From positions 1,680,563 to 1,744,562 of the forward strand of contig OZ241849.1 in NCBI GenBank assembly GCA_965203165.1: 64,000 bases of DNA. Direction: 5' to 3'. The position numbers were made by a program, and so were the translations under genes. The notes beneath the pieces were generated by a model. That model made no database searches, was not told where the DNA came from, and saw only the letters and a list, made by a program, of their open reading frames with translations. Positions 4,694 to 29,868 of this stretch are shown piece after piece. The stretch is from Dehalococcoidia bacterium. GTDB taxonomy: Bacteria; Chloroflexota; Dehalococcoidia; Bin125. Every line of letters begins with the position of its first letter. The first letter of the stretch is position 1.

Positions 4694-5836
4694 ATGGGCC
4701 ATCGAGAGAGGACGAACGCTTTGACACGCTTCAACAAGCCGGGAATTCGCTGGCTGCTGCCGATGCTGCTGCTGATCGGCCTCGCGGCCGTAGCCATCGG
4801 CTGCGGCGGCGGTGACGACGCACAACAGACCGCCGTTCAGGCGACCGAGGCCGAACAGCAGCAGCCCGCCGCCGATACGGCGCAGCAGCAGGGCTCCGAC
4901 TCCTCGTCCGTCGCCGCTGACCTGTCGGGCGAGATCGCGGTCGACGGCTCCAGCACTGTCTTCCCCATCACCGAAGCGATGGCCGCCGAGTTCGGCATCG
5001 CCAACCCTGATGTCCGCGTCACCGTCGGCGTCTCCGGCACCGGCGGCGGCTTCAAGCGCTTCTGCGCGGGCGAGACGGATATCTCCGACGCCTCCCGCCC
5101 GATCCGGAGCGCCGAAGTCGAACTCTGCGATGAGAACGGGATCAGCTTCATCGAAGTGCCCGTCGCCTACGACGGTCTCACCGTCGTGGTCCACCCCGAC
5201 AACGACTGGGTCGACCAGCTCACCGTCGCCGAGCTGAACACGATCTTCCGTCCCGACGACTACGCGGTGACCTGGGCCGATGTGCGCGACGGCTTCCCCG
5301 ATGTCGAAATCTCGCTCTTCGCTCCGGGCGCCGACTCCGGCACGTTCGACTACTTCACCGAGACAATCAACGACGACGGCGGCGTCCACCGCTCCGACAA
5401 CACCACCTTCTCCGAGGACGACAACGTGCTCGTGCAGGGCGTCTCCGGCGAGCGTGGCGGAATCGGCTACTTCGGCTTCTCCTACTACGCCAACAACTCG
5501 GACCGGCTCAAGGCCGTGCCGATCATCAACGACGCCGGCGCGGCCGTCGTCCCCAGCCTCGAGACGATCAACGACGGCTCCTACAACCCGCTCTCGCGCC
5601 CGCTGTTCATCTACGTCAGCGTCGCTTCGCTGGACCGCTCGGAGGTCGCCGCCTTCGTCGAGTACTACGTCACCGACGGCGTCTTCCTGGTCGACTCGCC
5701 CGAGGTCGGCTACGTGCAGCTGCCCGAGGAGCTCTACGCCGCCGCGCTGACCCGCGCGCAGGAGCGCATCACCGGCTCCGCCATCGCGCTCGCCCAGGAG
5801 GGCCAGACCCTGGCCTCAATCTACGGCGCGGAGTAG
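4694..5836 (+). CDS. pstS: Phosphate ABC transporter substrate-binding lipoprotein PstS
   Basis: Signal peptide with lipobox (AIGC) and PstS-family motifs ([20 protein letters not shown]). Confidence 0.9.
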
Positions 5837-5875
5837 CCCTCCTCCCGGCCCCAGCGCCCCGAAACCCACCCCGCC

Positions 5876-5934
5876 GCCGAACACCACCGAACACAGCCGA
5901 ACACAGCCGAACACAGCCGAACACCACCGAACAG
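5876..5934. repeat. 11-bp tandem repeat (ccgaacacagc/ccgaacaccac), about 5 units
   Basis: Seen directly in the sequence. Confidence 0.8.
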
Positions 5935-6059
5935 CGCCTGCACCCGCCACAGCACCCCAAACCCACCCCCGCCACTTACCAAGACCTACCAAAACCTACC
6001 AAACCTGACCGCGCCCCAACCCCCCCGACCAGATACAAACCCCACCTCCAACCCCGCCA

Positions 6060-6520
6060 ACTCCGTCACACCCGCGCCCACAGCTCCGTCATACCCGCGC
6101 TTGCCGCGGGTATCTCGCCGTGCCGAGCACCAAGCCCCGTTCCCGCCACCGCCACCGTCATACCCGCGCCCACAGCTCTGTCATACCCGCGCTTGCCGCG
6201 GGTACCCCGCCGCGCCGAGCACCAAGCCCCGTTCCCGCCACCGCCACCGTCATACCCGCGCCCAAAGCTCCGTCATACCCGCGCTTGCCGCGGGTATCTC
6301 GCCGCGCCGAGCACCAAGCCCCGTTCCCGCCACCGCCACCGTCATACCCGCGCCCAAAGCTCCGTCATACCCGCGCTTGCCGCGGGTATCTCGCCGCGCC
6401 GAGCACCAAGCCCCGTTCCCGCCACCGCCACCGTCATACCCGCGCCCAAAGCTCCGTCATACCCGCGCTTGCCGCGGGTACCCCGCCGTGCCGAGCACCA
6501 AGCCCCGTTCCCGTCACAGC
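6060..6520. repeat. 92-bp tandem repeat, about 5 units, each carrying a REP1 hairpin (tacccgcg-cttgc-cgcgggta). Flanked by 43-bp direct repeats (agcaccccaaacccacccccgccacttaccaagacctaccaaa) at about 5950-5995 and 6515-6560
   Basis: Period of 92 bp between successive gtcatacccgcgcttgccgcgggta occurrences (6089, 6181, 6273, 6365, 6457). Confidence 0.85.
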
Positions 6521-6625
6521 ACCCCCAACCCACCCCGGCCACTTACCAAGACCTACCAAACCCGACCACGCCCCACCACCCCCCAACCAGCTGAACACCC
6601 CAAGCCAGGCAAGCATGAACACGCC

Positions 6626-9076: not shown

Positions 9077-9319
9077 TCAGCCCTCCACGACATCGCCGGA
9101 GACCGGGTCGATCCGCACGCCCTTTTCGACGACCCAGGCAAGCCCGCGCTCGATCTCGTCGGCGTCGCCTTCGAGTTCGAGCACGACCCAGCCGAAATCC
9201 TGCTCGACAGCGGCCATGCGGATGTTGGTCACGACCTCGAACTCGCGGCCGAGCAGGTAGATGACCGGCTCGCGGACGGCGTCGCCCTCGAAGGTGAAGC
9301 GGACTCGGCGCGTGGCCAT
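9077..9319 (-). CDS. Stand-alone NIL-domain protein (MetN C-terminal-like small ferredoxin-fold domain)
   Basis: 80-aa product resembling the NIL domain. Located immediately downstream of a threonine-synthase-like gene. Confidence 0.5.
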   Translation of the reverse strand: MATRRVRFTFEGDAVREPVIYLLGREFEVVTNIRMAAVEQDFGWVVLELEGDADEIERGLAWVVEKGVRIDPVSGDVVEG

Positions 9320-9358
9320 GGCGGCTCTCCTGCCCGGCTTGGGGCGCGGCTGGCTTGC

Positions 9359-10594
9359 TCAGCTCTGCCCGGCGGCGGCGAATGCGTCCTCAAACGATTG
9401 CAGCGTGCCCTCGACCGGAATCGGCCGAGTCACGTGCGGCTCGACGGCGTCGGCCGTTTTGAGGCCGCCGCCGGTGATGAAGGCGACGGTCGATTCGTCG
9501 GGGTCGATGATCTCGCGCTGGAGCGCCTGGCGCAGCCCGGCGATCGTCACGCCGCCGGCGGTCTCCGCGAAGACGCCCTCGCTCTCCGCGAGCAGCTGGA
9601 TGCCCTCGACGACTTCGGCGTCGCTGACCGAGGCCGCCCCGCCGTCGGTCGCCGCCATCGTCTTGAGCGCGTAGTAGCCGTCCGCCGGGTTGCCGATCGC
9701 CAGGCTCTTGGCGATCGTGTCCGGCTTGACCGGGCGGATGTTGGTCGTGCCGTTCTGCCAGGCGGTCGCGATCGGCGAGCAGCCCGTCGCCTGCGCGCCG
9801 ACCATCCGCACCTCCGACTCGTCGATCAGCCCGTAGCTCTGCAGCTCCTCGAAGCCCTTGTGGATCTTGGTGAAGAGCGAGCCGGAGGCCATCGGCGCAA
9901 CGCACTGCCGCGGCGCCCGCCAGCCCAACTGCTCCGCCACCTCAAACGCGAGCGTGCGCGAGCCCTCCGAGTAATAGGGCCGCACATTGATGTTGACGAA
10001 CGCCCAGTGCCGGTTGTCGGCCAGCTCCGAGCAGAGCCGGTTGACATCGTCGTAGGAGCCGTTCACCGCGACGATCGTGGGGTGATAGATCGCCGAGCCG
10101 AGCACTTTGCCGGCTTCGAGGTCGTGCGGGATGAAGACGACCGCCCGCATCCCGGCCCGCGCGGCGTGCGCCGAAACCGCGTTGGCCAGGTTGCCGGTCG
10201 AGGCGCACGCCAGCGTCTCGAAGCCCAGCTGACGCGCCCGGCTGCTGGCCACCGCGACCACCCGATCCTTGAACGACCAGGAGGGATTGCAGGTGTCGTT
10301 CTTGATCCAGAGCTCGCGCATCCCAAGCCGGCGGGCCAGATTGTCGGCGCGCAGCAGCGGCGTGCAGCCCACGTTGAGGTCGACGATGTAGTCGGCGTCC
10401 ACGGGCAGCATGTCCTTGTAGCGCCAGATCGAGCGCGGGCCGGCCTCGATCCGTTCGCGCGTCACGCGCGCCTGAATCGCGCCCCGGTCGTATTGCACTT
10501 CGAGCGGGCCGAAGCAGAAATCGCAGACGTTGATCGGGTCGAGCGGAAACTCGCGGCTGCACTCACGGCAGGCGAGGTGTGTGGCGTTGGTCAT
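9359..10594 (-). CDS. Threonine synthase family PLP enzyme with an N-terminal Zn-ribbon (ThrC or ThrC-like sulfhydrylase)
   Basis: CxxC...CxxC ribbon. PLP lysine motif SFKDR. Fold-type II PLP enzyme of about 410 aa. Confidence 0.8.
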   Translation of the reverse strand: MTNATHLACRECSREFPLDPINVCDFCFGPLEVQYDRGAIQARVTRERIEAGPRSIWRYKDMLPVDADYIVDLNVGCTPLLRADNLARRLGMRELWIKNDTCNPSWSFKDRVVAVASSRARQLGFETLACASTGNLANAVSAHAARAGMRAVVFIPHDLEAGKVLGSAIYHPTIVAVNGSYDDVNRLCSELADNRHWAFVNINVRPYYSEGSRTLAFEVAEQLGWRAPRQCVAPMASGSLFTKIHKGFEELQSYGLIDESEVRMVGAQATGCSPIATAWQNGTTNIRPVKPDTIAKSLAIGNPADGYYALKTMAATDGGAASVSDAEVVEGIQLLAESEGVFAETAGGVTIAGLRQALQREIIDPDESTVAFITGGGLKTADAVEPHVTRPIPVEGTLQSFEDAFAAAGQS

Positions 10595-10741
10595 CGTTGG
10601 GGAAGCTTTCGGGTAGGAGGCGAGAGGGCGTGCGCGCGGCCTGTTGGGGCAACCCCCAATCAGGCCTCCGGCATCGCCATGCGGCCCTCAGCCGCGGCAT
10701 CCGTCCCCGTGCAAGCGCGCGTGCTCATCGGGCGCAGCCTA

Positions 10742-11284
10742 TCACGCGACGGCCCAGGTGGGGGTTTCGATTTGGTGGATGTTGTTGGTGTTGACGATGG
10801 TTAGCAGTTCGGCGATTTGGAGCTGGTCGGGGGGGATGGCGCGGGAGGGGGCTAAGTCGGCCAGGGGGCGGAGGACGAATGCGCGCTCGCGGAGGCGGGG
10901 GTGGGGGATGTTGAGGCGGGGGTGGGCGACGGTTTGGGAGCCGTAGAGCAGGATGTCGATGTCGATGGCGCGCGGCCCCCAGCGGCGCTCGCTGCGGACG
11001 CGGCCGAGGCGGGCTTCGATGGCCTGCGTTTGGTCGAGCAGGTCGAGCGGCGCGAGGTTGGTTCGGCCGCGCAGGGCGGCGTTGAGGAAGGGCGGCTGGT
11101 CTGCGTCGCCCCAGGGGGGGGTTTCGTAGAGGGCGGAGACGCGGACGTCGGCGAGGATGGCGCGCAGCGCGGCGGCGGCGGCGCGCAGCGCGGCGCGGCG
11201 GTCGCCGAGATTCGCGCCGAGCCCGAGGAAGACATCGACGGTGGGGGCATCGGGCGCGGCGGGCAGATTGGGCATGTCAGGCAC
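10742..11284 (-). CDS. folK: 2-amino-4-hydroxy-6-hydroxymethyldihydropteridine pyrophosphokinase (HPPK)
   Basis: Motifs VFLGLGANLGD and RWGPRAIDIDIL. Confidence 0.85.
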   Translation of the reverse strand: MPDMPNLPAAPDAPTVDVFLGLGANLGDRRAALRAAAAALRAILADVRVSALYETPPWGDADQPPFLNAALRGRTNLAPLDLLDQTQAIEARLGRVRSERRWGPRAIDIDILLYGSQTVAHPRLNIPHPRLRERAFVLRPLADLAPSRAIPPDQLQIAELLTIVNTNNIHQIETPTWAVA

Positions 11285-12101
11285 GGCGGACCACGGCGTC
11301 GGCGATTTTGGCGACGCGGATCATTTCGGGCACATCGTGGACGCGCAGGAGGTCCGCGCCGTTGGCGACGGCGATGGCGGCGGCGGCGGCGGAGCCCTCG
11401 AAGCGCTCGCGCGGGGACCAGCCGAACTGCCCGCCGGTCAGGCGTTTGCGCGAGAGGCCGGCCAGCAGCGGCCGTCCGGCGGCGCGCAGCTCGCGCAGGC
11501 GGTCGAGGATTTCGTAGTTCTGCCCGGGCGGCCAGCCGAAGCCGAAGCCGGGATCGAGGATCACGCGCTGCTCGGGAATGCCGGCGGCGCGGGCGCAATC
11601 GAGCGAGGCGGCGAAGCCGTTGAGCAGGGCGGCGACGGGATCGGCGGCGGCGGGGCGTCCGCGCCGGTTGTGCATCGCGATCACGGGCGCGCCGTAGCGC
11701 GCGGCGATCTCGGCGAGGCGGGGATCGCCGCGCAGGCCGTTGATGTCGTTGAGCGCGGCTGCGCCGGCGCAGAGCGCGGCTTCGGCGACTTCCGGCTTGG
11801 TCGTGTCGATGCTGATCGGCGCGGCGACTCGGTTGGCGCGGATCGCTTCGAGCACGGGCAGCACGCGGGCCAGCTCGACTTCGAGCGGGACGGGCTGGAA
11901 GCCGGGCCGAGTGGATTCGCCGCCGAGGTCGATCAGGTCGACGCCGTCGCGGCACATTTGCAGCGCGCGCTCAACCGCGGCGTCGACGTCGGACAGCCCG
12001 TCGCCGGCGAAGGAGTCGGGCGAGAGGTTGAGGATGCCGACGATGTAGGTGCGGGAGCCCCAGACGAACTCGCGGCCGGCGATGCTGAGCGGGGCGGGCA
12101 T
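11277..12101 (-). CDS. folP: Dihydropteroate synthase
   Basis: Motifs GILNLSPDSF and DLIDLGGESTRPG of the pterin-binding domain. Overlaps folK by 8 nt. Confidence 0.9.
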   Translation of the reverse strand: MPAPLSIAGREFVWGSRTYIVGILNLSPDSFAGDGLSDVDAAVERALQMCRDGVDLIDLGGESTRPGFQPVPLEVELARVLPVLEAIRANRVAAPISIDTTKPEVAEAALCAGAAALNDINGLRGDPRLAEIAARYGAPVIAMHNRRGRPAAADPVAALLNGFAASLDCARAAGIPEQRVILDPGFGFGWPPGQNYEILDRLRELRAAGRPLLAGLSRKRLTGGQFGWSPRERFEGSAAAAAIAVANGADLLRVHDVPEMIRVAKIADAVVRRA

Positions 12102-12104
12102 GGG

Positions 12105-12641
12105 TCAGAGCTCGCGCTCGCGGACGCGGGGGCGTCCGTCCTGCTGGATGGTTTCGAGCAGCAGGCGCCGCGGGGGCGCGTCTGTCTCGCCGATTTCGAG
12201 GGCGATTTCGCTGGGCACCACCGAGTCGGGCTCCGCGCCTTCGTCAATCCGCCAGGCGCGCACGCCGGGCTCGGCGTCCATCAGCGTGACGAGCACCCAG
12301 AACGGCCAGGGATTGGGCCCGCGGTGCAGGCGGGCGATGTTGAGGTCGGTCGGAGACGGCCGCGCTTCGCTGGCGACATGCGAGTGGTAGATCACGAGCA
12401 TGTCGCCGTCGCTGCGCTCAATCGCGTTGTAGAGGTGAAGCAGTTCCTGCGGGGGGATGTTAAAGCGCCAGGGGGAGGCTTCGGCGTTGGTGGTGCGGTA
12501 GAGGGTGAGCGCGCCGTCGGCGGCGCGCGCGATGATGCCGCAGCACTCGTTGGGCGCGTCCTGCTGCGCGTGCGCGATCATCTCGTCGACCAGCTGCTGC
12601 GGGAGCGTGAGCGTGGGTTGGTCAGTCATTAGGTCGGTCAT
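12105..12641 (-). CDS. JAMM/MPN+ (Mov34) metalloprotease, Mec+/CysO-hydrolase-like
   Basis: JAMM motif ECCGII...HSHVASEARPSPTDL. Start taken at MTDLMTDQ, with ATGA overlap to the upstream gene. The track's N-terminal extension was rejected as Arg/Pro-rich. Confidence 0.8.
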   Translation of the reverse strand: MTDLMTDQPTLTLPQQLVDEMIAHAQQDAPNECCGIIARAADGALTLYRTTNAEASPWRFNIPPQELLHLYNAIERSDGDMLVIYHSHVASEARPSPTDLNIARLHRGPNPWPFWVLVTLMDAEPGVRAWRIDEGAEPDSVVPSEIALEIGETDAPPRRLLLETIQQDGRPRVREREL

Positions 12642-13252
12642 CGGGCTGCCGCTGTCTGCGTCGGCTGGCTGTTGGACCAGAAGGTACGCGCTTCGTGGTG
12701 GGGGACCTCTTCGCCCCAGCTGTCCCAGCCGGGCGCGCGGCTGCGGGCGAAGAGCTCGATCTTGGACTGGTCGGGGAACATTCGCTCGATGCGGTCGCGG
12801 ACCTCGCGCGGTTTCTCGGAGTGCCGCCCGCGCGGCGCGCTGACCAGCTGGCGAACGTCGCGGCGGCCGCGCGGCTGGGGGATGCGCCCGCGTTTGAAGA
12901 CGAGGCAGAGCTCGCACTGCGAGAGCGTGTAGTGGCCGGGGTTGACGCGCTGCTTGTCCCAGATGAAAGCGACGGTGGCCCAGGCGAAGCCCCAGGCTTT
13001 GCCCAGCTCGATCGCCTGATCGAGGTGCGGCGAGGTGGCCCAGAGGAAGAGCACGCAGTCGTCGGCTGCGATCTCCTGCACGGGCAGTTGCGCCAGGTCC
13101 CGGCTGGCGACGGTGGAAAAGTGCCGCGCCGCGCCGCCGCTGTCGCCGCTGCCGGGCCCGGCGTGCTGCAGCTGGCCTTTGTAGTCCCAGGGCGGGTCGG
13201 CGTAGATCACGGCGTAGCGCCGCTGCGGGAGCGGGGGGAACTCGGTCAGCAT
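12638..13252 (-). CDS. MT-A70 family (DPPW) adenine methyltransferase
   Basis: Hallmark YADPPWDY motif and a 204-aa length typical of the bacterial MT-A70 clade. Confidence 0.75.
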   Translation of the reverse strand: MLTEFPPLPQRRYAVIYADPPWDYKGQLQHAGPGSGDSGGAARHFSTVASRDLAQLPVQEIAADDCVLFLWATSPHLDQAIELGKAWGFAWATVAFIWDKQRVNPGHYTLSQCELCLVFKRGRIPQPRGRRDVRQLVSAPRGRHSEKPREVRDRIERMFPDQSKIELFARSRAPGWDSWGEEVPHHEARTFWSNSQPTQTAAAR

Positions 13253-13644
13253 GTCGGCTCCGGGCGCCAGTCGCGCAGCGGGCCGTCGTCGTGGCAGGCG
13301 CCGGGCGTGAGCTGCATCTTGAGCAGCGTGCGGCTGAGCTGCGGCGCGATCAGGTGGTCGAGCCAGTGCTCCCGCTCGTCTTCGGGGACGATCTGCGCGA
13401 GGTCGGCGAAGCGAATGTGGATCTCGTGCTCGTCGGCGACGATGCCGAAGTCGAGCACCGGCTTGCCCGGCCGCAGCAGGCGGCCGATCGTGTCGCTGCG
13501 CAGGATGCGGTTGTCGGGGCGCTCGAGGTAGCGCTCAAGCACGCCGGCGCGGAAGCGCAGGGGCAGCGCGGCCGCGTCGCCGCTGGCGGCGGCGCGCGCG
13601 ACCGTGCGCCGCCAGACGGGGTCCGAGGGCGGGTCCGCGGGCAT
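13246..13644 (-). CDS. Hypothetical protein (132 aa) translationally coupled to the MT-A70 gene
   Basis: GC3-rich ORF with a 7-nt overlap to the downstream gene. No recognisable domain. Confidence 0.4.
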   Translation of the reverse strand: MPADPPSDPVWRRTVARAAASGDAAALPLRFRAGVLERYLERPDNRILRSDTIGRLLRPGKPVLDFGIVADEHEIHIRFADLAQIVPEDEREHWLDHLIAPQLSRTLLKMQLTPGACHDDGPLRDWRPEPTC

Positions 13645-13653
13645 CTCGCGCGC

Positions 13654-14499
13654 TCAGGCGGAGGGGTTGTCGATCGGCACGCCGACCACGCTGCCGTACT
13701 CGGTCCAGGAGCCGTCGTAGTTGGTCGAGTTCTCGATGCCCAGCAGGTAGCGCAGCGCGAACCAGCTGTGCGAGGAGCGCTCGCCGATGCGGCAGTAGGC
13801 GATCACCGGCTGGTCGCCGCTGATGCCCTTGCTCCCGTAAATCTCGCGCAGCTCGTCGGCCGGCTTGAAGGTGCCGTCCTCGGCGACGGCGCTGGCCCAG
13901 GGAATGTTGGACGCGCCGGGCACGTGGCCCTTGCGCTGCGCGGTTTCGGGCAGGCCGGGCGGGGCCATGATCACGCCGTTGAACTCGTCGGGCGAGCGCA
14001 CATCGACCAGCTGGCCGCCCACGCCGATGTGGGCGATCACGTCGGGCAGCTTGGCGCGGATCGACTCGTCGCGCTCGGCGACCGCGATCGAGCCCGCGGC
14101 CGGCGCGGGGGCGTCGGTGCTGGTCGGGCGGCTCTCGGCCAGCCACTTGACCCGCCCGCCGTCCATCAGCGCGGTGTTGGCCACGCCGTACATCTCGAGC
14201 ATCCAGAGCGCGTAGGCCGCGAACCAGTTGTTGTTGTCGCCGTAGAGCACGATCTGCGAGTCGTCGTTCGCGCCCGCGCCGCGCAGCAGCGTTTGCACGG
14301 TCTCGCGGCTGGCCACATCGCGCTGCACCTGATCCTGCAGCTGGCTGGTCCAGTCCCAGGCCACCGCGCCGGGCGGGTGGCCCTCGTCGTACGCGCCGGT
14401 GTCGACGTCGACTTCGATCAGGCAGACGGCGGGGTCGTCGAGGTGCTCGGCGACCCACTGCGTGCTGACCAGCTTTTCGGGGTGTGCGTATTCGGTCAT
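13654..14499 (-). CDS. sseA: Thiosulfate/3-mercaptopyruvate sulfurtransferase (tandem rhodanese domains)
   Basis: Two rhodanese domains and the active-site loop CRIGERSS. Confidence 0.85.
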   Translation of the reverse strand: MTEYAHPEKLVSTQWVAEHLDDPAVCLIEVDVDTGAYDEGHPPGAVAWDWTSQLQDQVQRDVASRETVQTLLRGAGANDDSQIVLYGDNNNWFAAYALWMLEMYGVANTALMDGGRVKWLAESRPTSTDAPAPAAGSIAVAERDESIRAKLPDVIAHIGVGGQLVDVRSPDEFNGVIMAPPGLPETAQRKGHVPGASNIPWASAVAEDGTFKPADELREIYGSKGISGDQPVIAYCRIGERSSHSWFALRYLLGIENSTNYDGSWTEYGSVVGVPIDNPSA

Positions 14500-14563: not shown

Positions 14564-15544
14564 TCACCACCAGATTTTGCCCTCGATCGTTTCGTCGCCG
14601 GCGATGTCCTCGTAGTCGCGCGCCCAGAGGCCGGTGGAGAGGTACTTCCAGCCGCCGTCGGCGAGCAGGACGACGATGTGGGCGGTGTCGGCGCGCTCGG
14701 CGATGCGCTGCGCGGCGCGGACCGCCGCGCCGCAGGAGATGCCGGCGAAGACGCCCTCCTCTTCGAGCAGCGATTTGGTCACGGCGAAGGAGGTGCGGCT
14801 GTCGATCACGATGCGTCCGTCGAGCACGGACTCGTCGAGCACCGGCGGGATGTAGCCCTCGTCGAGGCTGCGCAGCCCCTGCACGAGGTCGCCGGGGTGC
14901 GGCGCGGCGGCGACGACTTTGATCTCGGCGCGCTGTTCTTTGAGGTAGCGGCCCACGCCGGTCAGCGTGCCGCCGGTGCCCAGCCCGGCGACGAAGTGGG
15001 TGATCTCCGGGCAGTCGCGCAGGATTTCGGGGCCGGTCGTCTCGTAGTGCGCGTTGGGGTTGGCGGCGTTTTCGTATTGCATGGGCATGAAGACGCTGGG
15101 GTCTTCGGCGTAGAGCTGTTTGGCCATGCGCACCGCGCCGTTGCTGCCCTGCTCGCCGGGCGAGAGGATCACTTCCGCGCCGAAGAAGGTCAGCAGGTCG
15201 CGCCGCTCGACGCTCACGCTCTCGGGCATCACGCAGCGCACCGGATGGCCGCTGAGCCGGCCGATCATCGCGATCGCCAGCCCGGTGTTGCCGCTGGTCG
15301 GCTCAAGGATCGTTTGGCCGGGCTGCAGCGAGCCGTCCGCGTGGGCGGCATCGAGCATGGACCGGGCGATGCGGTCTTTGACCGAGCCGGTCGGGTTCTG
15401 GCCCTCGAGCTTGACCCAGATCGCGGCGTCGGGATTGGGCGAGAGGTTGTTGAGCCGGACCAGCGGCGTGTTGCCGATCGTCTCCAGCAGGGAGCCGAAG
15501 CGGGCGGGCGGCGCAGCCACGGCGGCAGGGGCGGCGGTGGTCAT
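14564..15544 (-). CDS. cysM: Cysteine synthase B-like (CysM, the CysO-thiocarboxylate-dependent type)
   Basis: PLP motif SVKDR, fold-type II. The start overlaps the CysO stop (ATGA). Confidence 0.85.
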   Translation of the reverse strand: MTTAAPAAVAAPPARFGSLLETIGNTPLVRLNNLSPNPDAAIWVKLEGQNPTGSVKDRIARSMLDAAHADGSLQPGQTILEPTSGNTGLAIAMIGRLSGHPVRCVMPESVSVERRDLLTFFGAEVILSPGEQGSNGAVRMAKQLYAEDPSVFMPMQYENAANPNAHYETTGPEILRDCPEITHFVAGLGTGGTLTGVGRYLKEQRAEIKVVAAAPHPGDLVQGLRSLDEGYIPPVLDESVLDGRIVIDSRTSFAVTKSLLEEEGVFAGISCGAAVRAAQRIAERADTAHIVVLLADGGWKYLSTGLWARDYEDIAGDETIEGKIWW

Positions 15545-15819
15545 CGGCGGCCGCCCGCCAGGGCCGGCAGAATCGCCAGCACGTCGCCGTCGCTCAGCGC
15601 GGTTTCGAGACCCTCCAGGAAGCGGATGTCTTCGTCGTTGAGGAAGATGTTGACGAAGCGGCGCAGTTCGCCCTGCTCGAGCAGTTGGTCGCCGATGCCG
15701 GGGTAGGCGCGTTCGAGCGAGGCGAGCAGGTCGCCGACGTTGGCCGATTCGAGTTGGACGGACTTCTGCCCGTCGGTGAACTTTTGCAGCATCGACGGGA
15801 CGCGGACTTCAACCGGCAT
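15541..15819 (-). CDS. cysO: MoaD/ThiS-family sulfur-carrier protein CysO with a C-terminal Gly-Gly-Arg-Arg tail
   Basis: 92-aa beta-grasp protein ending ...ILPALAGGRR. Sits directly upstream of cysM. Confidence 0.8.
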   Translation of the reverse strand: MPVEVRVPSMLQKFTDGQKSVQLESANVGDLLASLERAYPGIGDQLLEQGELRRFVNIFLNDEDIRFLEGLETALSDGDVLAILPALAGGRR

Positions 15820-15856: not shown

Positions 15857-16960
15857 CTAGCCGCCGGCCGCGGCTGCGGGGCCCTCGTGGAAGGGCGAGC
15901 CGCAGAATTCTTCGTAGTCGATCAGCTCGGTGACGCTGGGCGCGTCGCCGCAGAGCGGGCAGGCGGGGTCGCGGCGGATTTTGACGGTGCGGAAGTCCAT
16001 CGCCAGCGCGTCGTAGAGCAGCAGGCGGTTCTTGAGCGGCTCGCCCTGCTCCAGCAGCACCTTGATCGCCTCGGTGGCCTGGATCGCGCCGATCGTGCCC
16101 GGCAGCACCCCGAGCACCCCCGCCTCCGAGCAGGAGGGCACCATCCCCGGCGGCGGCGGGCTGGGGTAGAGGCAGCGGTAGCAGCCCTGCCCGGGGAAGA
16201 ACGTGGTGACCTGCCCCTCGAAGAGGAAGATGCTGCCGTCGACGAGGATCTTCTCGGCCAGGAACGCGGCGTCGTTGACCAGGTAGCGGGTGGCGAAGTT
16301 GTCCGCGCCGTTGATGATCACGTCGTACTGCGGGATGATCTCCATCGCGTTTTCGGAGGTCAGCGGCTGGGTGTGGGTCTGGACGACGATGTTGGGGTTG
16401 AGGTCGGCGATGCGGTCCTGCGCGGATTCGACTTTGGGGCGTCCGATGTCGCTGGTGCCGTGGATGATCTGGCGTTGGAGGTTGGAGCGGTCGACGACGT
16501 CGAAGTCGACGATGCCGAGGGTGCCGATGCCGGCGGCGGCGAGGTAGACGAGCACGGGCGAGCCGAGCCCGCCCGCGCCGACGGCGAGCACTTTGCCGTC
16601 GATCAGCTTGCGCTGCCCGAGGGGGCCGACCTGGTCCATGATCAGGTGGCGGGAGTAGCGCTCGACCATTTCGGGCGTCATGGCCGCGCCGCCGGCGAGC
16701 GCGGGAATCACGGCCACTTCATCGCCGTCGCTGACCAGGGTGTCGGTGCCCTGCAGTGCGCGAATCTCCTGGCTGTTGAGATAGACGTTGACGTGCTCGA
16801 GCAGCTCCTGCTCGCCGTCGAAGACCATTTCGCCGAAACCCGGGTAGCGCTGGTCGAGGTCGCGCAGCACGCCGTGGACATCGCTGCCGCCGGCCTCGAC
16901 GAAGGTGCGGTTGCCGGTGATCTTGCGGAAGGGGGTGGGAATGTAGACCTTGACGGGCAT
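15857..16960 (-). CDS. In-frame fusion of a MoaD/CysO-like ubiquitin-like domain (91 aa, ending ...IPALAGG) and a ThiF/MoeB-type E1 adenylyltransferase (274 aa) joined by Ala-Ala
   Basis: ATG at 16960 with GAAGGAA about 8 nt upstream. No stop codon between GG and the E1 Rossmann motif (LAVGAGGLGSP). E1 CxxC pairs are present and there is no rhodanese domain. The track's 887-aa ORF N-terminal extension was rejected. Confidence 0.75.
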   Translation of the reverse strand: MPVKVYIPTPFRKITGNRTFVEAGGSDVHGVLRDLDQRYPGFGEMVFDGEQELLEHVNVYLNSQEIRALQGTDTLVSDGDEVAVIPALAGGAAMTPEMVERYSRHLIMDQVGPLGQRKLIDGKVLAVGAGGLGSPVLVYLAAAGIGTLGIVDFDVVDRSNLQRQIIHGTSDIGRPKVESAQDRIADLNPNIVVQTHTQPLTSENAMEIIPQYDVIINGADNFATRYLVNDAAFLAEKILVDGSIFLFEGQVTTFFPGQGCYRCLYPSPPPPGMVPSCSEAGVLGVLPGTIGAIQATEAIKVLLEQGEPLKNRLLLYDALAMDFRTVKIRRDPACPLCGDAPSVTELIDYEEFCGSPFHEGPAAAAGG

Positions 16961-20919: not shown

Positions 20920-22500
20920 TCAGAGCAGGCGGCGGCGCTCCCAGGAGGCGGGGATGGGCAGATCAGGGAAGCGGCCCGCGAAGTAGTCGGCCAGCGACCA
21001 GAGTTGGACTGCGGGGTATTCGCGGTCGCCGATTGCGACTCGCCCGGCGCGGCCGGCGGCGGCGCGCACGCCCGCGCTGACCTCGTCCATCGTCAGGAAC
21101 ACGCCGAGGTCGGCGCTGGCGTCGTCGAGCGCGCTGCGGAAGGCCTGCACATCGGCGGGAGCGACGCGGCCGGATTTGACCTGGGCGACAGCGAGTCCGT
21201 CGGGGCGGCGGCGGCCCTCGGTTTTGCGGAAGCGCATTCGCCCGTCGATGCCGCCGTCGCCGCGCTGGCGCTCGTTGGGGCGGAAGCCGCGCAGCCGCTG
21301 GATTGCCCAGGTCTCGAACTGGAAGGGGTCGCGGCCGGCGAGGTCGCGCGCCGAGCCGAGGTCCTGCGGCGCGCCCAGCACGCGCGGCTCGACGCCGATC
21401 TCGTTGAGCCAGTCTTCGACGATGCCGATGGCGAGATGGGTGATGTCGATTCCGGCCCAGCGGCGGCCGAGATTTTCGGCGGCGACGACGGCTGTGCCGC
21501 AGCCGCAGAAGGGATCCAGCACGAGGTCGCCGGGGTTGGAGGCGAGGCTGATGATCCGCTCGAGCAGGCGGAGCGGCTTTTGCGTCGGATAGCCCCGCCG
21601 CGTCAGATCCCGCGAGCCGAGCGGGGGAATGTCCACCCAGACATCGCCCAGCGGCATCCCGCGCTGCTCGTCGAGGTAGCGCACGTAGCGGGGCACCGCG
21701 CCGGGGCGGGCCTGGACAATGCGGCCCTCGTCGTATTCCTGCTGCATCCGCTCGCGCGTCCAGCGCCAGACGCGCGTGACGCCCAGGAACTCATAGGTGA
21801 GGTTGGGCCGCTCTTTGTGGGGATTGACCAGGTTGTCGAGGGCGTACCGCCGACCATCCGCGTCCTCATGCCGGTAGTGCTCGAGCGTCGCCGGATCGAT
21901 GTTTTTCGGGTCGTACGGGACGAATACTTCATCCATGTTCCAAACGGCGTCGGGGCTGCCCGCGTAGGCGAAGATCATGTCGTGGTTGCGGGGCAGGCGG
22001 CGGGTGGCGAGGCCTTTCGCCGCTGTTCTGCGCCAGATGATCTGGTTGCGAAAGTTGTCGCCATGAAAGGCGGCGTCCATCACCAGCTTCAGATAATGGC
22101 CGGCGGTGGTGTCGCAGTGCAGAAAGATGTTGCCGCTGGGCTTGAGCACGCGGCGCAGCTCGACCAGCCGCACGCCCATCATGCAGAGATAGGCCGTGAG
22201 CTGGTTTTCGCCGATCGAATCGGTCAGCGCGTTGAGCAGGTTGCCGGTCGGCGTGCCGTTGAGATCGAGCAGCGCGTCGACGGCGTCCGGCCCCCAGTGC
22301 CAGGTGTCTTCAAAGGCGCGGATTTGCGAGGGCGCGGTGTTGCCGCTCTCGTCGCGGAAGAGCACATTGTAGCTGGCGTTGGAATTGAACGGCGGGTCGA
22401 GATAGACGAGGTCCACCGAGTGGTCGGGAAACTCGTTGCGCAGCACATCGAGGTTGTCGCCGTAGAAGAGCGAGCCTTCAAGGCCGGTGGCGTCGGGCAT
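20920..22500 (-). CDS. N4/N6 DNA methyltransferase (beta-class: DPPF motif before FxGxG) fused to a C-terminal Mrr-like (Mrr_cat, PD-D/ExK) restriction-endonuclease domain
   Basis: Motifs YLDPPFNSN and LDPFCGCGT. The C-terminal part carries D-GGIDG...Q-K, diagnostic of the Mrr catalytic domain. Confidence 0.8.
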   Translation of the reverse strand: MPDATGLEGSLFYGDNLDVLRNEFPDHSVDLVYLDPPFNSNASYNVLFRDESGNTAPSQIRAFEDTWHWGPDAVDALLDLNGTPTGNLLNALTDSIGENQLTAYLCMMGVRLVELRRVLKPSGNIFLHCDTTAGHYLKLVMDAAFHGDNFRNQIIWRRTAAKGLATRRLPRNHDMIFAYAGSPDAVWNMDEVFVPYDPKNIDPATLEHYRHEDADGRRYALDNLVNPHKERPNLTYEFLGVTRVWRWTRERMQQEYDEGRIVQARPGAVPRYVRYLDEQRGMPLGDVWVDIPPLGSRDLTRRGYPTQKPLRLLERIISLASNPGDLVLDPFCGCGTAVVAAENLGRRWAGIDITHLAIGIVEDWLNEIGVEPRVLGAPQDLGSARDLAGRDPFQFETWAIQRLRGFRPNERQRGDGGIDGRMRFRKTEGRRRPDGLAVAQVKSGRVAPADVQAFRSALDDASADLGVFLTMDEVSAGVRAAAGRAGRVAIGDREYPAVQLWSLADYFAGRFPDLPIPASWERRRLL

Positions 22501-24921: not shown

Positions 24922-26013
24922 TTACTCGCCGCCGCCGCTCGCCCCCTGCTTGAGGCCGTGGCCGGTGAGCGGGACGATCACGTGCTCGTCGGGGCCAATC
25001 ACGCCGTCGCGGCGGAGTTGCTCAAGCGCGGCTACGGGCACGGCGGAGGTGGGCTCGCACCAGTAGCCCGTGCGCCCGAGCTCGCGCTGCGCCTCGAGGA
25101 TGTCTGCTTCGGCGACGCCGACGGCGGAGCCGCCGCTTTCACGTACGGCCTCCACCATCTCGGCCAGACGCGGTGGCTCGGCGACCGCGATGCCGTCGGC
25201 CACGGTGGCCGCGGCGAGCGGCGGCGACTCGCCGTTGAGGGCGGCGACGAGCGGGGCGACGGCCTGGGCCTGCGCGGCGTGCAGGCGAGGGATGCGATCG
25301 GCCTTATCGGTCTGGATCAGCTCCTGAAAGCCGCGCCAGAGGCCGAGCAGCAGCGAGCCGTTGCCGACGGGCATGACGATGTGATCCGGCAGGTGGTCGG
25401 GCGTCACACCGATCAGCTGGGAGGCGAACTCCCAGGCGAGGCTTTTCATGCCTTCGGCGAAGTAGGGGCTGAGGTTGTGCGAGAGGTAGGGCAGTCCGCG
25501 CTGCTCGGCGAAGCGCTGGGCGGCTTCAGCGGCGGCAGCGCGGGGGCCGTCGACACGGTGGGCGATGCCGCCGACGCCTTCAATTTGGGCGCGCTTCATC
25601 GGCGGGGCGGAGGCGGGCAGGAAGATGTGGGCGGTGATGCCTGCTGCGGCAGCGAAAGCGGCCAGGGCTGCGCCGGCGTTGCCGGAGGAGTCTTCGACAA
25701 ATTCGGCGGTCTTGAAGGCGCGGGCGGCACCGATCAGGATCGCGGCCCCGCGATCTTTGAAGGAGCCGGTCGGGGAGAAGAATTCGAGTTTGGCGGAGAA
25801 ACCGCCGGCGAGGGGCAGTTCGGTCAGCGGCGTCCAGCCGCCGCGCAGGGAGACGGGGAGCCAGGGGATGCGGGCTTCGTAGCGGCGCGGCGGATCGTGG
25901 TATCGGATGCAGAAGAGTCCGCCGCATTCGGGGCAGCGCAGGTCCAGACTGGGCGCGCAGGAGCGTCGGCAATCGAGGCAGACGAGGTGGTGATCGTAGT
26001 TGGGGTGGGGCAT
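24922..26013 (-). CDS. thrC: Threonine synthase (second ThrC-family paralog with an N-terminal Zn-ribbon)
   Basis: CLDC...CPEC ribbon and PLP motif SFKDRG. Start at MPHPNYDH. Confidence 0.8.
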   Translation of the reverse strand: MPHPNYDHHLVCLDCRRSCAPSLDLRCPECGGLFCIRYHDPPRRYEARIPWLPVSLRGGWTPLTELPLAGGFSAKLEFFSPTGSFKDRGAAILIGAARAFKTAEFVEDSSGNAGAALAAFAAAAGITAHIFLPASAPPMKRAQIEGVGGIAHRVDGPRAAAAEAAQRFAEQRGLPYLSHNLSPYFAEGMKSLAWEFASQLIGVTPDHLPDHIVMPVGNGSLLLGLWRGFQELIQTDKADRIPRLHAAQAQAVAPLVAALNGESPPLAAATVADGIAVAEPPRLAEMVEAVRESGGSAVGVAEADILEAQRELGRTGYWCEPTSAVPVAALEQLRRDGVIGPDEHVIVPLTGHGLKQGASGGGE

Positions 26014-26230
26014 GGGAGTGCGTCTTCCAGAATCAGGGTAGTGGGCGGCGCAGCCGCCGCTGGGCGCAGCCGCGCTGTCGTGCGTTGGGGACATATTGAG
26101 CGCTGGTTGACATGCGGAGGCGGCGCTTACCGCTTGTTAACCGTTGTCGGACTGGCGCTTCGTAGCGTTTGCCGGGTTGCCGCTATGCGTTCCCCGAGAC
26201 GGTGGGGGCGGCGGGGCAGGAGCGGGCGGG

Positions 26231-27208
26231 ATGGCTGCGCAAGCGCCGCGACAGCGCGATACGGTGGTCGGCCTGCTGGCCGAACTCTGGCGCGACAAAC
26301 TCCAACCCAGCCGCTCCGGCACCGGCCGCGAAACCCTCTCCGGACGCATCATCCACGGCGCACTCTTCATCGTCGCCACACTCTCCGCCTTCGTCACCGT
26401 CGGCATCGTCCTCGTCCTGATCTTCGAAACCGTCGAATTCTTCCGCATCATCCCCTTCGGAGACTTCTTCGGCTCCACCGAATGGTCCGCCCTCTTCGCC
26501 GAAGGACAATTCGGCGTCTGGGCACTCGTCTGGGGCACCCTGCTCGTCGCCGCCCTCGCCCTCGCCGTCGCCGTCCCCCTCGGCCTGCTCGCCGCCATCT
26601 TCCTCAGCGAATACGCCCCCCCGCGCCTCCGCGCCGTCCTCAAACCGCTCCTCGAAGTCCTCGCCGGCGTCCCCACCGTCGTCTACGGATACTTCGCCCT
26701 GCTCACCGTCAGTCCCCTCATCCGCAGCATCTTCGGCCAGGACGTCGGCATCTACAACGCACTCGCCGCCGGCATCGTGCTCGGCATCATGATCATCCCC
26801 ATGGTCTCCTCGCTCAGCGAAGACGCCCTCAACGCCGTCCCCCGCTCCCTCCGCGAAGGCTCCTACGCCCTCGGCGCAACACGCTTCGAAACCGCCGTCC
26901 GCGTCGTCCTCCCCGCCGCCTTCTCCGGCGTCGTCGCCTCCATCATCCTCGCCGCCTCTCGCGCCGTCGGCGAAACCATGATCGTCACCATCGCCGCCGG
27001 CGGCAACCCCCAATTCCTCGTCGACCCCCTCGAAGCCGTCCAGACCATGACCGCCATGATCGTCCAACTCAGCCTCGGCGACACCCCCACCACCAGCGTC
27101 GAATTCAAAGTCCTCTTCGCCGTCGCCATGACCCTCTTCGTCATGACCCTCGCCATGAACATCTTCGCCCAGTGGGTCGTCCGACGCTTCCGCGAGGAAT
27201 ACGAATGA
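26231..27208 (+). CDS. pstC: Phosphate ABC transporter permease PstC
   Basis: Six TM helices and the ABC permease EAA-like region. Start chosen at MAAQAP. Confidence 0.85.
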
Positions 27209-27525
27209 CCCCCCCGCGCCGCTTCCGCGCCGGCCGGCGCGCCGCCGCCTTCGCCGCGCTGTTCGCCCTGGTGCTCGCCCTCGGCGTTTACGCCGCCCAC
27301 ATCGGCCAGGCCACACCCAACTGGCGCGACATCGACGCCCACTACGCCCAGCTGGGCGGCGCAGACCACTCCGACGCACGCTACGACCCGGCGCTCTGCG
27401 ACGCCTTCGCTCACTCCCTGCGACTCAACAAGAACGCCTTCGCCCGCCACCCGACCATCACCAGCGGCGCCCAGAGCCGCATCTACCTGGCCGACGAATA
27501 CGCCCGCCACTGCGAGACGCCATGA
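27205..27525 (+). CDS. Small (106 aa) predicted single-TM protein inserted between pstC and pstA, coupled by ATGA overlaps at both ends
   Basis: ATG 27205 overlaps the pstC TGA and its TGA overlaps the pstA ATG. It has a hydrophobic helix [18 protein letters not shown] and GC3-rich codon usage. Confidence 0.45.
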
Positions 27526-28835
27526 CCGCCGCCGCCTTCGACCCGCCCTCCGCTCCGCGCTTCCAGCCGCGCGTCGCCCTCCGCCGACTCTTCTCCAGAG
27601 CCTTCCTCGGCGGCTGCTTCCTCGCCATCTGCGTCGGCGTCGTGCTGCTCGGCGCGCTCGTGATCGAAGTCGCAATCGACGGCGGCGCAGTGCCCGCCGC
27701 CCCTCCCAGCGGCGCGTCGCTGCCCCAGGGACTCGCCTGGCTCGCCTGGGCCTTCCCCCTGGCCGTGCTCGCCCCCTTCCTCCTGCCCCGCCTGATCCAC
27801 AAGGTCCACGACCGCGCCCGAAACTCCCCGCGCCGCTTCGCCGCGCTCTGCCTGCTCTGCGCCGCCCCCGCCGCCGTCTTCGCCCACATCATCTACGTCA
27901 GCTTCGAGGGCGCTTACTACGTCGGCGTCGAAGGTCACATCTTCGACCTGCTCGGCCAAGCCACCACCTGGCAAACCTTCCGCATCGCCCTGGCCGGCTT
28001 CCTCTTCCCCCTCCTCCTGCTCGCCGCCGCCTGGCGCGCCGCCCCACGCCTCCGCAGCCCCTCACTCATCTGGCCCGCCATCATCCTCGCCGCCTGGGCC
28101 GTCTACCTCTTCATCGAGCCCAACTTCCTCGCCTCTCCCCCCTCCCACGCTCCCGACCGCATCGGCATCTTCCCCGCACTGATCGGCACCCTCTACATGA
28201 TGACCATCACCGCCGCCGTCGCCTTCCCTCTCGGCGTCGGCGCGGCCATCTACCTCGAAGAATACGCCCGCCGCAACTGGTTCTCCCGCTTCATCCAGGT
28301 CAACATCGCCAACCTCGCCGGCGTCCCCTCAATCGTCTACGGACTGCTCGGCCTCCAACTCTTCGTCCGCGTGCTCGAATTCGACCGCAGCGTCCTCGCC
28401 GGCGCGCTCACCATGGCCCTGCTCGTCATGCCCATCATCATCGTCAGCGCCCAGGAATCCCTCCGCGCCGTCCCACCCTCAATGCGCGAAGCCGCCTACG
28501 CCGTCGGCGCAACCCGCTGGCAAGTCATCCGCCATCACGTCCTCCCCTACGCCTTCGGCGGCATGCTCACCGGCAACATCCTCGCCATGTCCCGCGCCAT
28601 CGGCGAAACCGCGCCACTCATCGCCATGGGCGCGCTCACCTTCATCGCCTTCCTGCCCGACGCCCCCACCGACGACTTCACCGTCCTCCCCATCCAAATC
28701 TTCAACTGGGTCACCCGCCCCCAATCCGCCTTCCACGAAATCGCCGCCTCCACCATCATCATCCTCCTGCTCATCCTCCTGCTCATGAACAGCGCCGCCA
28801 TCATCATGCGCCACCGCACCCGCACCGAGTGGTAA
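27522..28835 (+). CDS. pstA: Phosphate ABC transporter permease PstA (with an N-terminal extension)
   Basis: C-terminal 290 aa typical of PstA ([12 protein letters not shown]...). Confidence 0.85.
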
Positions 28836-28889
28836 TCTTCCCTATCGCGCCCCCCCGCGCCGCCGCCCGGCGCTCCGAAAGGAACTCCG

Positions 28890-29828
28890 ATGTCGCAACA
28901 GCCAGCCGCTCCGCCCGCGCCCGACCACGCGGCCGAGCAGCGCGCGCCGGCCGCCCCACAGGACCTTGGCCCCGTGATCGCCGCGCCCGAACCCGGCGGC
29001 AAAATCGACTCCGTCCACCTCGACCCCAACCGCAGCGCCGTCCGCCACACAATCCCCGACGACGTCCAACTCGCCCTCGAACTCCACGAAGTCTCCGTCT
29101 ACTACGGCTCCTTCCAGGCCGTCGACCGCATCAGCATCCAAATCCCCCGCAACCGCGTCACCGCACTGATCGGTCCCTCCGGCTGCGGCAAAAGCACCCT
29201 CCTCCGCTGCCTCAACCGCATGAACGACCTCATCCCCTCCGCACGCGTCGAAGGCGCAATCCGCTTCGGCGAACTCAACCTGCTCAGCCCCAAAGTCGAC
29301 GCCGTCGACGTCCGCCGACGCATCGGCATGGTCTTCCAAAAACCCAACCCCTTCCCCAAATCAATCTTCGAAAACGTCGCCTTCGGCGCACGCATCAACG
29401 GCTACGCCGGCGACATGGACCGCCTCGTCGAAAACTCCCTCCGCCGCGCCGCACTCTGGGACGAAGTCAAAGACGACCTCGGCAAAAGCGGCCTCGCCCT
29501 CTCCGGCGGACAGCAACAGCGCCTCTGCATCGCACGCGCCATCGCCGTCCAGCCCGAAGTCATCCTCATGGACGAACCCGCCAGCGCACTCGACCCCGTC
29601 GCCACACTCAAAATCGAAGACCTCATGCGCGAACTCGCCGAGGACTACACCATCGTCGTCGTCACCCACAACATGCAGCAGGCCGGGCGCGTCTCCGACT
29701 TCACCGCCTTCCTCCTCGCCGGCGAAGAACGCACCGGACGCCTCGTCGAATTCGGCCCCACCACCGACATCTTCACCAACCCCGCAGACCCCCGCACGGA
29801 AGACTACATTACCGGAAGGTACGGCTGA
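28890..29828 (+). CDS. pstB: Phosphate ABC transporter ATP-binding protein PstB
   Basis: Walker [10 protein letters not shown], the LSGGQQQR signature, and Walker B ILMDEP. Confidence 0.9.
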
Positions 29829-29868
29829 TCGGGCCTCGCGCCCGGCTCCCAGCGCCGGGATTCCCCTC

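Follow-up and report, generated by a model that had tools for sequence, protein, structure and literature searches.

We examined a 64,000-nt stretch of DNA assigned to a Dehalococcoidia bacterium (contig OZ241849.1, positions 1,680,563 to 1,744,562 of the forward strand; hereafter the window), and within it two adjacent minus-strand genes, one encoding a homolog of threonine synthase (ThrC) and the other a small protein with a stand-alone NIL domain (Table 1). The window is ~70% GC, and its relatives are labelled Chloroflexota or Dehalococcoidia. The gene pair is real and not a chance pairing. GC content at third codon positions is 0.92 for the enzyme gene and 0.89 for the NIL gene, with the codon-position GC pattern of real genes, and the NIL gene starts 39 nt past the stop of the ThrC-like gene, with a GGAGAG Shine-Dalgarno sequence in front of it. 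Downstream of the enzyme gene, the NIL gene is followed by epoxide hydrolase genes. A preliminary description of this locus had reported two Zn-ribbon ThrC-family genes in the window, only one of them followed by a NIL gene, and both open reading frames (ORFs) were indeed found where it had placed them; the second paralog (ThrC2) has no NIL gene behind it, and tblastn detected no second NIL gene anywhere in the 64-kb window.

The 411-aa enzyme carries SFKDR, the pyridoxal phosphate (PLP)-lysine motif of the threonine synthase family (fold type II). It matched Pfam PALP with 231.6 bits and NCBIfam TIGR00260 (thrC) with 276 bits against a cutoff of 167, while its score against PRK08197 was 293.6 bits against a cutoff of 303. 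At its N-terminus lies a CxxC...CxxC Zn ribbon, an extra ~55 aa compared to class I threonine synthases. Despite the TIGR00260 score above cutoff, the active-site loops typical of characterised ThrCs are not present. The window enzyme has FKDRVV, STGNLA and NVRPYYSEG at the respective positions, and the pattern FKDRVV, STGNLA and N-x-RP[YF]Y-x-EG was common to the 25 NIL- or riboswitch-linked homologs examined, apart from the first motif of L017, an artefact of the regular expression, which caught an earlier YKDLLP. The five threonine synthases from the PDB instead displayed FKDRGM, STGNTS and NSVNP-x-R-[IL]-EG.

Phylogeny gave a similar separation. In a neighbour-joining tree (83 sequences, 405 columns, 100 bootstraps), the window enzyme fell into a 60-member clade with 92% bootstrap support that also held actinobacterial homologs from Nonomuraea and Micromonosporaceae, with all five PDB ThrCs and ThrC2 outside it. 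The Zn-ribbon ThrC-like proteins as a whole split from the characterised ThrCs with 95% support, and the clade to which the window belongs (group A, see below) was nested within riboswitch- or carrier-linked Chloroflexota sequences with 98-99% support. The window enzyme was 51-53% identical to actinobacterial homologs controlled by an S-adenosylmethionine (SAM) riboswitch and 35-37% identical to the PDB ThrCs, which are nevertheless its closest solved structures. The ThrC-like protein encoded on OZ241913.1 matched it with 99.8% identity. ThrC2 scored below every NCBIfam ThrC cutoff (TIGR00260, for example, 113 bits against 167) and was placed outside both the MetM-like clade and that of the characterised ThrCs. 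The preliminary description had suggested that the ThrC-like gene encodes a MetM-type enzyme and had proposed a phylogeny of the two paralogs as a check. The first part is borne out, since this protein clusters with riboswitch- and carrier-linked homologs and away from the five PDB ThrCs; the second paralog joined neither group.

We also inspected ten unusually long ThrC-like homologs for fusions. A C-terminal PadR winged-helix domain was found in six (of P0340, P0367, P0369, P0374, P0379, P0382 and P0354) and a LeuA allosteric domain in one, with nothing recognisable in the others. The ThrC-like family has thus picked up regulatory modules repeatedly.

According to the GapMind 2026 preprint and PMC12172450, MetM is a threonine synthase homolog that makes homocysteine from O-phosphohomoserine; the sulfur comes from the thiocarboxylate of the carrier protein MetO, with Mec and MoeZ as helpers. 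The latter paper also places a SAM riboswitch upstream of metM in Streptomyces albulus. Sampled members of the 60-member clade had a SAM riboswitch in front, a ThiS-type carrier with a GG end directly downstream, or both. At the Nonomuraea gerenzanensis locus (L082), a SAM riboswitch precedes a homolog that shares 51% identity with the window enzyme, followed after 24 nt by a 91-aa ThiS/MoaD protein ending AVAGG, with no NIL gene. A SAM riboswitch likewise lies upstream of the ThrC-like gene in L081, L083 and L089, and ThiS lies downstream of it in L083 and L085. In L091 the order is ThrC-like gene, ThiS and then ThiF-rhodanese, and in L092 it is ThrC-like gene, ThiS and then homoserine dehydrogenase. 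The MetM-type route is supported by context because these sampled relatives show the published metM/metO layout. Taken together with the motifs and the tree, this layout leads us to regard the window enzyme as very probably a MetM-type homocysteine synthase and not an ordinary threonine synthase; O-phosphohomoserine-dependent homocysteine synthesis is the reaction predicted for it.

Two further loci encode NIL domains close to a ThrC-like gene. The order is permuted in L086, which reads ThrC-like, ThiS, NIL, and in which the NIL protein ends L-E-S. L087 encodes a 191-aa protein (5960-6535) with two NIL domains and a DRDVVEG tail; its gene lies ~700 nt past a ThrC-like gene whose product shares 42% identity with the window enzyme. 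When the PLSDB plasmid collection was searched with the NIL query, it returned MetN genes only. The PLSDB record that holds L082 (NZ_LT559118.1) is an 11.85-Mb replicon filed as a plasmid with 10 annotated features, and is evidently the chromosome of Nonomuraea gerenzanensis.

A survey of one genome per species, scanned with an alignment of NIL homologs, identified at least 516 relatives, and the best 80 loci were examined. All 80 bore Chloroflexota labels except three that were generic or probably mis-binned (L047, L054 and L068); the labels included Dehalococcoidia, Tepidiformaceae (the cultured Tepidiforma flava among them), Thermoflexus and Anaerolineaceae. A ThrC-like gene lay immediately 5' of the NIL gene in 79 of the 80 loci, and the exception, L069, had no upstream sequence. 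The loci fell into two groups. In group A (34 loci, the clade to which the window belongs), the enzyme was 74-100% identical to that of the window, the NIL gene was followed by epoxide hydrolases and often by ThrC2, and none had a SAM riboswitch upstream. In group B (46 loci), the enzyme was 58-70% identical to that of the window, and the NIL gene was followed after 8-185 nt (810 nt at one locus) by a gene for a ThiS-type carrier, typically ending VPAVAGG. In group B, nhmmer located a SAM riboswitch (RF00162) upstream at 33 of the 46 loci, and Rfam did so at 10 of 12. The ancestral order of the Chloroflexota cassette is SAM riboswitch, ThrC-like gene, NIL and ThiS carrier, and group A has lost the adjacent carrier and the riboswitch. 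A one-strand string of the ThrC-like gene, NIL, one to three epoxide hydrolases and ThrC2 occurred in L001, L005-L008, L010-L012, L014-L016, L018, L021, L022 and L024-L026. In the Tepidiforma flava locus (L042, 4756-5977), the ThrC-like match came in two overlapping pieces (4756-5421 and 5372-5977), which suggests a frameshift or an assembly error.

The NIL protein of the window matched Pfam PF09383 with 60.2 bits against a cutoff of 24, over profile positions 1-71 of 73. Its AlphaFold2 model (predicted local distance difference test score 87.5) displayed a beta-alpha-beta-beta-alpha-beta, ferredoxin-like fold, with a low-confidence tail at residues 73-80. The best Foldseek matches to this model were the MetN C2 domains 3TUZ, 3TUI and 3DHX (TM-score 0.79-0.83, root-mean-square deviation 1.2-1.7 Å over 74-75 residues), and the top 50 matches continued with ACT domains and ferredoxin-like folds. 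No beta-grasp fold was present among these 50, nor did the protein match the ThiS Pfam family. The C2 domain of MetN binds L-methionine across its dimer interface, where N295 forms a hydrogen bond with the ligand, and the N295A substitution abolishes both binding and trans-inhibition (PMC6233128). In the HMMER alignment to MetN, N295 and A299 correspond to N32 and A36 of the window protein. Across 115 homologs, position 32 was Asn in 105 and Asp in 10, and T31, R34, M35 and V38 were invariant. A NIL domain is also part of the archaeal homocysteine enzyme L-aspartate semialdehyde sulfurtransferase (L-ASST), in which it is described as binding methionine and regulating activity (PMC12068725).

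With a mean column identity of 76%, the NIL protein is about as conserved as the enzyme, and it was kept with the enzyme in both groups, with or without a carrier or a riboswitch. The tail GDVVE[G/S] was conserved across the family, the window protein ending VVEG (E-G, not G-G), and this conserved, low-confidence segment of the model fits a docking element. The 46 loci with a ThiS carrier next to NIL show these to be distinct components of a three-part system, and since MetM/MetO pairs outside the Chloroflexota (L082, L083, L085, L091 and L092) have no NIL, this protein is not required for catalysis as such. We also considered NIL as a stand-in for the SAM riboswitch, an idea rejected because both were present at the sister-clade loci in which the riboswitch was found. 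By analogy with the characterised domains, NIL may instead be a methionine-sensing accessory or regulatory subunit that exerts feedback control over the enzyme, a role whose probability we judge to be evenly balanced. In its logic such a subunit would be comparable to the small regulatory subunits of ACT type that serve other amino-acid enzymes.

The leader of the enzyme gene, which extends from the folK stop to the enzyme start codon, contains a short upstream ORF (uORF). Such a uORF, always with the core M-[AVG]-M-P, was present in all 34 group A loci (L001-L033 and L035) and in the window, starting 81-175 nt before the enzyme gene. Counted from the first in-frame ATG, these uORFs span 21-48 codons, of which Met accounts for a mean fraction of 0.19; the richest have 7 Met in 23-24 codons. 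MMTKRMTVDAMMLGRMAMPTVLPR is an example of such a uORF. Homology with a 97%-identical relative (L004) covered this whole leader and reached window position 10746, just inside the end of the folK gene. The leader gave no Rfam match of any kind at the gathering score, and no riboswitch family was found at E<=10 over 10400-11400, where the only matches were two weak ones to small nucleolar RNA models. In group A, a leader ORF rich in Met codons has probably taken the place of the SAM riboswitch; judged by its codon content it looks like a methionine-codon leader peptide, and it may be an attenuator.

Table 1. Features of the gene pair, its leader and the surrounding sulfur-related genes in the 64-kb window
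Feature	Coordinates	Strand	Size	Remarks
Stand-alone NIL-domain protein	9077..9319	minus	80 aa	PF09383
Enzyme gene, ThrC-like, Zn-ribbon PLP enzyme	9359..10594	minus	411 aa	PALP, TIGR00260
5' leader, folK stop to enzyme start codon	10595..10741	minus	147 nt	Holds the uORF
Leader uORF MSTRACTGTDAAAEGRMAMPEA	10660..10728	minus	22 codons	3 Met; putative leader peptide for methionine sensing
JAMM/Mec-type metalloprotease	12105..12641	minus	178 aa	Prok-JAB PF14464 76.2 bits; motif HSHVASEARPSPTD; candidate carrier-tail trimmer
Tandem rhodanese (SseA-like)	13654..14499	minus		Rhodanese 98 bits; PRK11493 134 bits, below cutoff; candidate sulfur source for E1
CysM/CysK-family cysteine synthase	14564..15544	minus		TIGR01136 357.6 bits against cutoff 344; beside the CysO-like carrier
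ThiS/MoaD-type carrier, CysO-like	15541..15819	minus	92 aa	Ends ALAGGRR; PF02597 59 bits; overlaps CysM start; may donate sulfur to CysM as well as to the MetM-like enzyme
ThiS-type carrier (ends ALAGG) fused to MoeB/ThiF-type E1	15857..16960	minus	367 aa	Pfam ThiS 52.8 and ThiF 266 bits; NCBIfam MoeB/MoeZ 387-395 bits
ThrC2, second Zn-ribbon ThrC-family paralog	24922..26013	minus		28% identical to the first paralog; motifs FKDRGA and SSGNAG

Both of the pathway helpers, a MoeZ-like activating enzyme (E1) and a Mec/JAMM protease, are encoded in the window, on the same strand as the pair and 1.5-6 kb upstream of it, and the same string of helper genes lies directly downstream of a full cassette in L036. 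ThiS-type genes were found in the window only at 15.5-17.0 kb. The CysO-like carrier encoded there shared 55% identity with the carrier ahead of CysM in L036, 49-52% with the carriers encoded after NIL in relatives, and 47% with the MetO-like protein of Nonomuraea. The fusion of a carrier to E1 recurs in L036 (8228-9337) and L048 (11321 to the end of the locus). MetO-type carriers form an orthologous group of their own, and this group has no member in the window, so the enzyme would have to borrow the CysO-like or E1-fused carrier or use one encoded elsewhere.

In the CysO-like carrier the GG is followed by RR, which implies that the C-terminus is trimmed, with the JAMM protein as the presumed protease, and the carrier domain of the E1 fusion would need release by a protease in order to act as a free carrier. 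A 132-aa ORF (13246-13644) matched no family and is not the JAMM protein, which is the one listed in Table 1. The preliminary description had placed the pair at the end of a string of folK, folP, JAMM and carrier genes and suggested that it shares their E1. These genes are present and sharing is plausible, but the adjacency is specific to this genome and is not kept even in the 97%-identical relative, where the sequence upstream of the leader corresponds to window 31.1-34.6 kb.

An MT-A70 methyltransferase gene and the 132-aa ORF without a match lie between the rhodanese and JAMM genes (12638-13644, minus strand), and the stretch 20920-22500 (minus strand) holds a fusion of a DNA methylase with an Mrr-type nuclease; these look like restriction-modification or mobile material in the sulfur string. 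The pstS gene (4694-5836) is parted from pstC, pstA, pstB and phoU (26144-30543) by a ~20-kb, mostly minus-strand block with the sulfur, folate and ThrC genes. Because the order of segments differs in close relatives, recent rearrangement has taken place here.

We propose the following model. The enzyme would replace the phosphate of O-phosphohomoserine with sulfur drawn from the C-terminal thiocarboxylate of a ThiS-type carrier. NIL would bind methionine or a closely related compound (homocysteine, for example) at a site like that of MetN C2; docked on the enzyme, probably via the conserved and flexible acidic tail GDVVE[G/S], it would exert feedback control over activity. In the clade of the window, the Met-codon-rich leader peptide would probably govern expression, and sulfur in the window would probably come from the CysO-like carrier or the carrier-E1 fusion 5-6 kb upstream, or else from a carrier elsewhere in the genome. 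Taken as a whole, a MetM-type enzyme with a NIL regulatory partner, control by a leader ORF and a carrier that is shared or encoded elsewhere strikes us as a rather probable reading of the locus. More tentatively, and with somewhat less than even confidence, we suggest that NIL may be a new kind of regulatory subunit for enzymes, and methionine control in this clade may have two tiers, a leader peptide that responds to tRNA charging and a NIL protein that detects free methionine and inhibits the enzyme, with sulfur taken from a carrier shared with cysteine synthesis.

Two alternatives reassign the small protein. The preliminary description took NIL for a possible sulfur carrier of MetO type and proposed that its C-terminus be inspected for a free Gly; on this view the terminal Gly would be thiocarboxylated by the upstream E1 and would donate sulfur to the ThrC-like enzyme. 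A conserved, flexible tail, a terminal Gly in the window and in all 46 group B loci, the absence of a ThiS gene beside the pair in the clade of the window, and an E1 encoded 6 kb away are all compatible with that proposal. The window protein does end in Gly, but the tail is E-G and not G-G. An E-S end was present in 24 of 120 homologs and in 19 of the 34 species of the carrier-less clade, and Ser is also the last residue in L086. The fold is ferredoxin-like, without a beta-grasp protein among its top 50 structural matches; a true GG-ending ThiS lies beside NIL in 46 loci and in L086; and the published-type actinobacterial locus has ThiS and no NIL. These findings contradict the carrier assignment, which we now regard as very improbable. 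A more serious rival to the sensor role retains the MetM-like enzyme and makes NIL a structural adaptor or chaperone that docks the carrier thiocarboxylate or shields an intermediate. NIL accompanies the enzyme in both clades (79 of 80 loci), a tighter link than either carrier or riboswitch shows, it is highly conserved, as noted above, and its tail is kept even in the distant tandem-NIL protein; moreover, most relatives already have riboswitch control, so a second sensor of the methionine pathway is less obviously needed. Yet the characterised NIL domains that we found in the literature are all methionine-binding regulatory modules, the key Asn is conserved together with its surrounding strand, and MetM/MetO pairs outside the Chloroflexota work without NIL, which is therefore not needed for catalysis or docking as such. 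On balance we consider the adaptor role unlikely.

The remaining alternatives concern the enzyme. It could be a genuine threonine synthase, possibly the only one in the organism, with NIL tuning the branch point between threonine and methionine, much as plant threonine synthase is activated by SAM. The TIGR00260 score exceeds the cutoff, that of PRK08197 comes close (293.6 against 303), and the nearest structures are ThrCs; furthermore, ThrC2 reaches none of the ThrC cutoffs, and the 64 kb contain no canonical thrC. In keeping with this alternative, threonine synthase and deaminase activities were reported for a MetM homolog from a cyanobacterium (PMC12172450). However, the residues at which the enzyme departs from all characterised ThrCs map to the loops of the PLP lysine, STGNT and SVNPxR, and the clade stands apart from the ThrCs with 92-95% bootstrap support. 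SAM riboswitches turn expression off at high SAM. Their presence upstream in many lineages, together with ThiS carriers downstream, fits a methionine enzyme that incorporates sulfur, and the leader peptide is rich in Met, not in Thr. A threonine synthase thus appears improbable to us. Lastly, the pair may have taken on a new function in the clade of the window, such as a gamma- or beta-replacement with another nucleophile, alongside the epoxide hydrolases and ThrC2. Loss of both the carrier and the riboswitch in all 34 clade loci would be explained in this way, as would the recurrence in many of them of the string ThrC-like gene, NIL, first and second epoxide hydrolase and ThrC2. Set against this are three unchanged active-site signatures, the nesting of the clade among riboswitch- and carrier-linked Chloroflexota with 98-99% support, a Met-rich leader that keeps the link to methionine, and ThiS-type carriers still encoded in the genome, and we give this possibility little weight.

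Returning to the proposed MetM-type enzyme with a NIL regulatory partner, several observations weigh against it. The NCBIfam name for the enzyme would be threonine synthase, and the cyanobacterial homolog mentioned above is reported to show activities of that kind. The MetM assignment rests on genomic context and second-hand descriptions, and the Nonomuraea locus, at 51% identity, served as the nearest proxy for S. albulus MetM. Two hallmarks of the MetM family, the adjacent carrier and the SAM riboswitch, are absent at the window locus, and since the pair in its clade lies beside epoxide hydrolases and ThrC2, its function may have changed. The partnership of NIL with the enzyme and its binding of methionine are predictions; none of the ten unusually long homologs was a natural fusion of ThrC and NIL, and because NIL and the SAM riboswitch occur together in most relatives, NIL is no simple riboswitch substitute. 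As to the leader, the uORF of the window itself has only 3 Met in 22 codons, and RNAalifold predicted hairpins with two covarying base pairs only, so that no attenuator structure is claimed.

The MetM/MetO thiocarboxylate pathway was reportedly described in S. albulus by Hasebe et al. in 2024, as relayed by papers that cite that work. The locus studied here resembles it in having a threonine synthase homolog, relatives with a SAM riboswitch and a ThiS carrier, and Mec/JAMM and MoeZ-like helpers in the window, and its enzyme shares both clade and motifs with actinobacterial loci of the published layout. It differs in that NIL lies beside the enzyme in the Chloroflexota (79 of 80 loci) and in none of the actinobacterial loci, in that the window has a Met-rich leader ORF instead of an adjacent MetO or a riboswitch, and in that the E1 of the window has a fused carrier domain and no fused rhodanese. 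Whereas the MetM/MetO system is known, we found no mention of a NIL partner together with MetM in the searchable literature. Cysteine is made from O-phosphoserine by the CysO/CysM/Mec system of Mycobacterium tuberculosis, in which a CysM-family enzyme uses a protein thiocarboxylate. The window string has a matching carrier that overlaps a CysM-type enzyme gene, a JAMM protease and an E1, but it is a neighbour that may lend shared parts to the pair, not the pair itself.

Individual components likewise have known counterparts. The NIL protein belongs to the same Pfam family as MetN C2 (3DHX, 3TUZ and 6CVL), with a fold similarity of TM ~0.8 and with N295 and A299 aligned to N32 and A36. In contrast to MetN C2, the C-terminal domain of an ATP-binding cassette (ABC) ATPase, it is a free-standing protein of 80 aa encoded beside a biosynthetic enzyme; identity between the two is 22-26%, and the acidic tail GDVVE[G/S] is specific to the NIL family of the window. 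L-ASST of methanogens (MA1821, COG1900/CBS, with MA1822, a NIL-ferredoxin) also forms homocysteine and has a NIL domain described as a methionine-binding regulator. Its catalytic protein, its substrate (aspartate semialdehyde) and its sulfur chemistry are nevertheless unrelated, and its NIL domain is fused to ferredoxin domains, whereas the window enzyme is PLP-dependent and the NIL protein stands alone. With class I ThrCs (Aquifex 2ZSJ, Bacillus subtilis 6CGQ, Thermus thermophilus 1UIM and M. tuberculosis 2D1F), the window enzyme shares the fold, the PLP-lysine context, 35-37% identity over the catalytic core and probably O-phosphohomoserine as substrate. It is set apart from them by the extra Zn ribbon, three changed active-site loops, a separate clade, and relatives with methionine-type regulation.

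MetM-type enzymes are routinely labelled threonine synthase, a practice that can hide methionine synthesis in a large, mostly uncultured phylum. The three-motif signature combined with the context rules is a candidate means of re-annotating such genes. The NIL protein, present in at least 516 species-level genomes, lies nearly always beside the enzyme in the best 80 loci. If it is a methionine sensor, then one small domain would regulate MetN import, archaeal L-ASST and a bacterial homocysteine route. Between sister clades, a SAM riboswitch appears to have given way to a Met-rich leader ORF, and a leader peptide that reads Met codons would, if true, represent an unusual type of attenuator.

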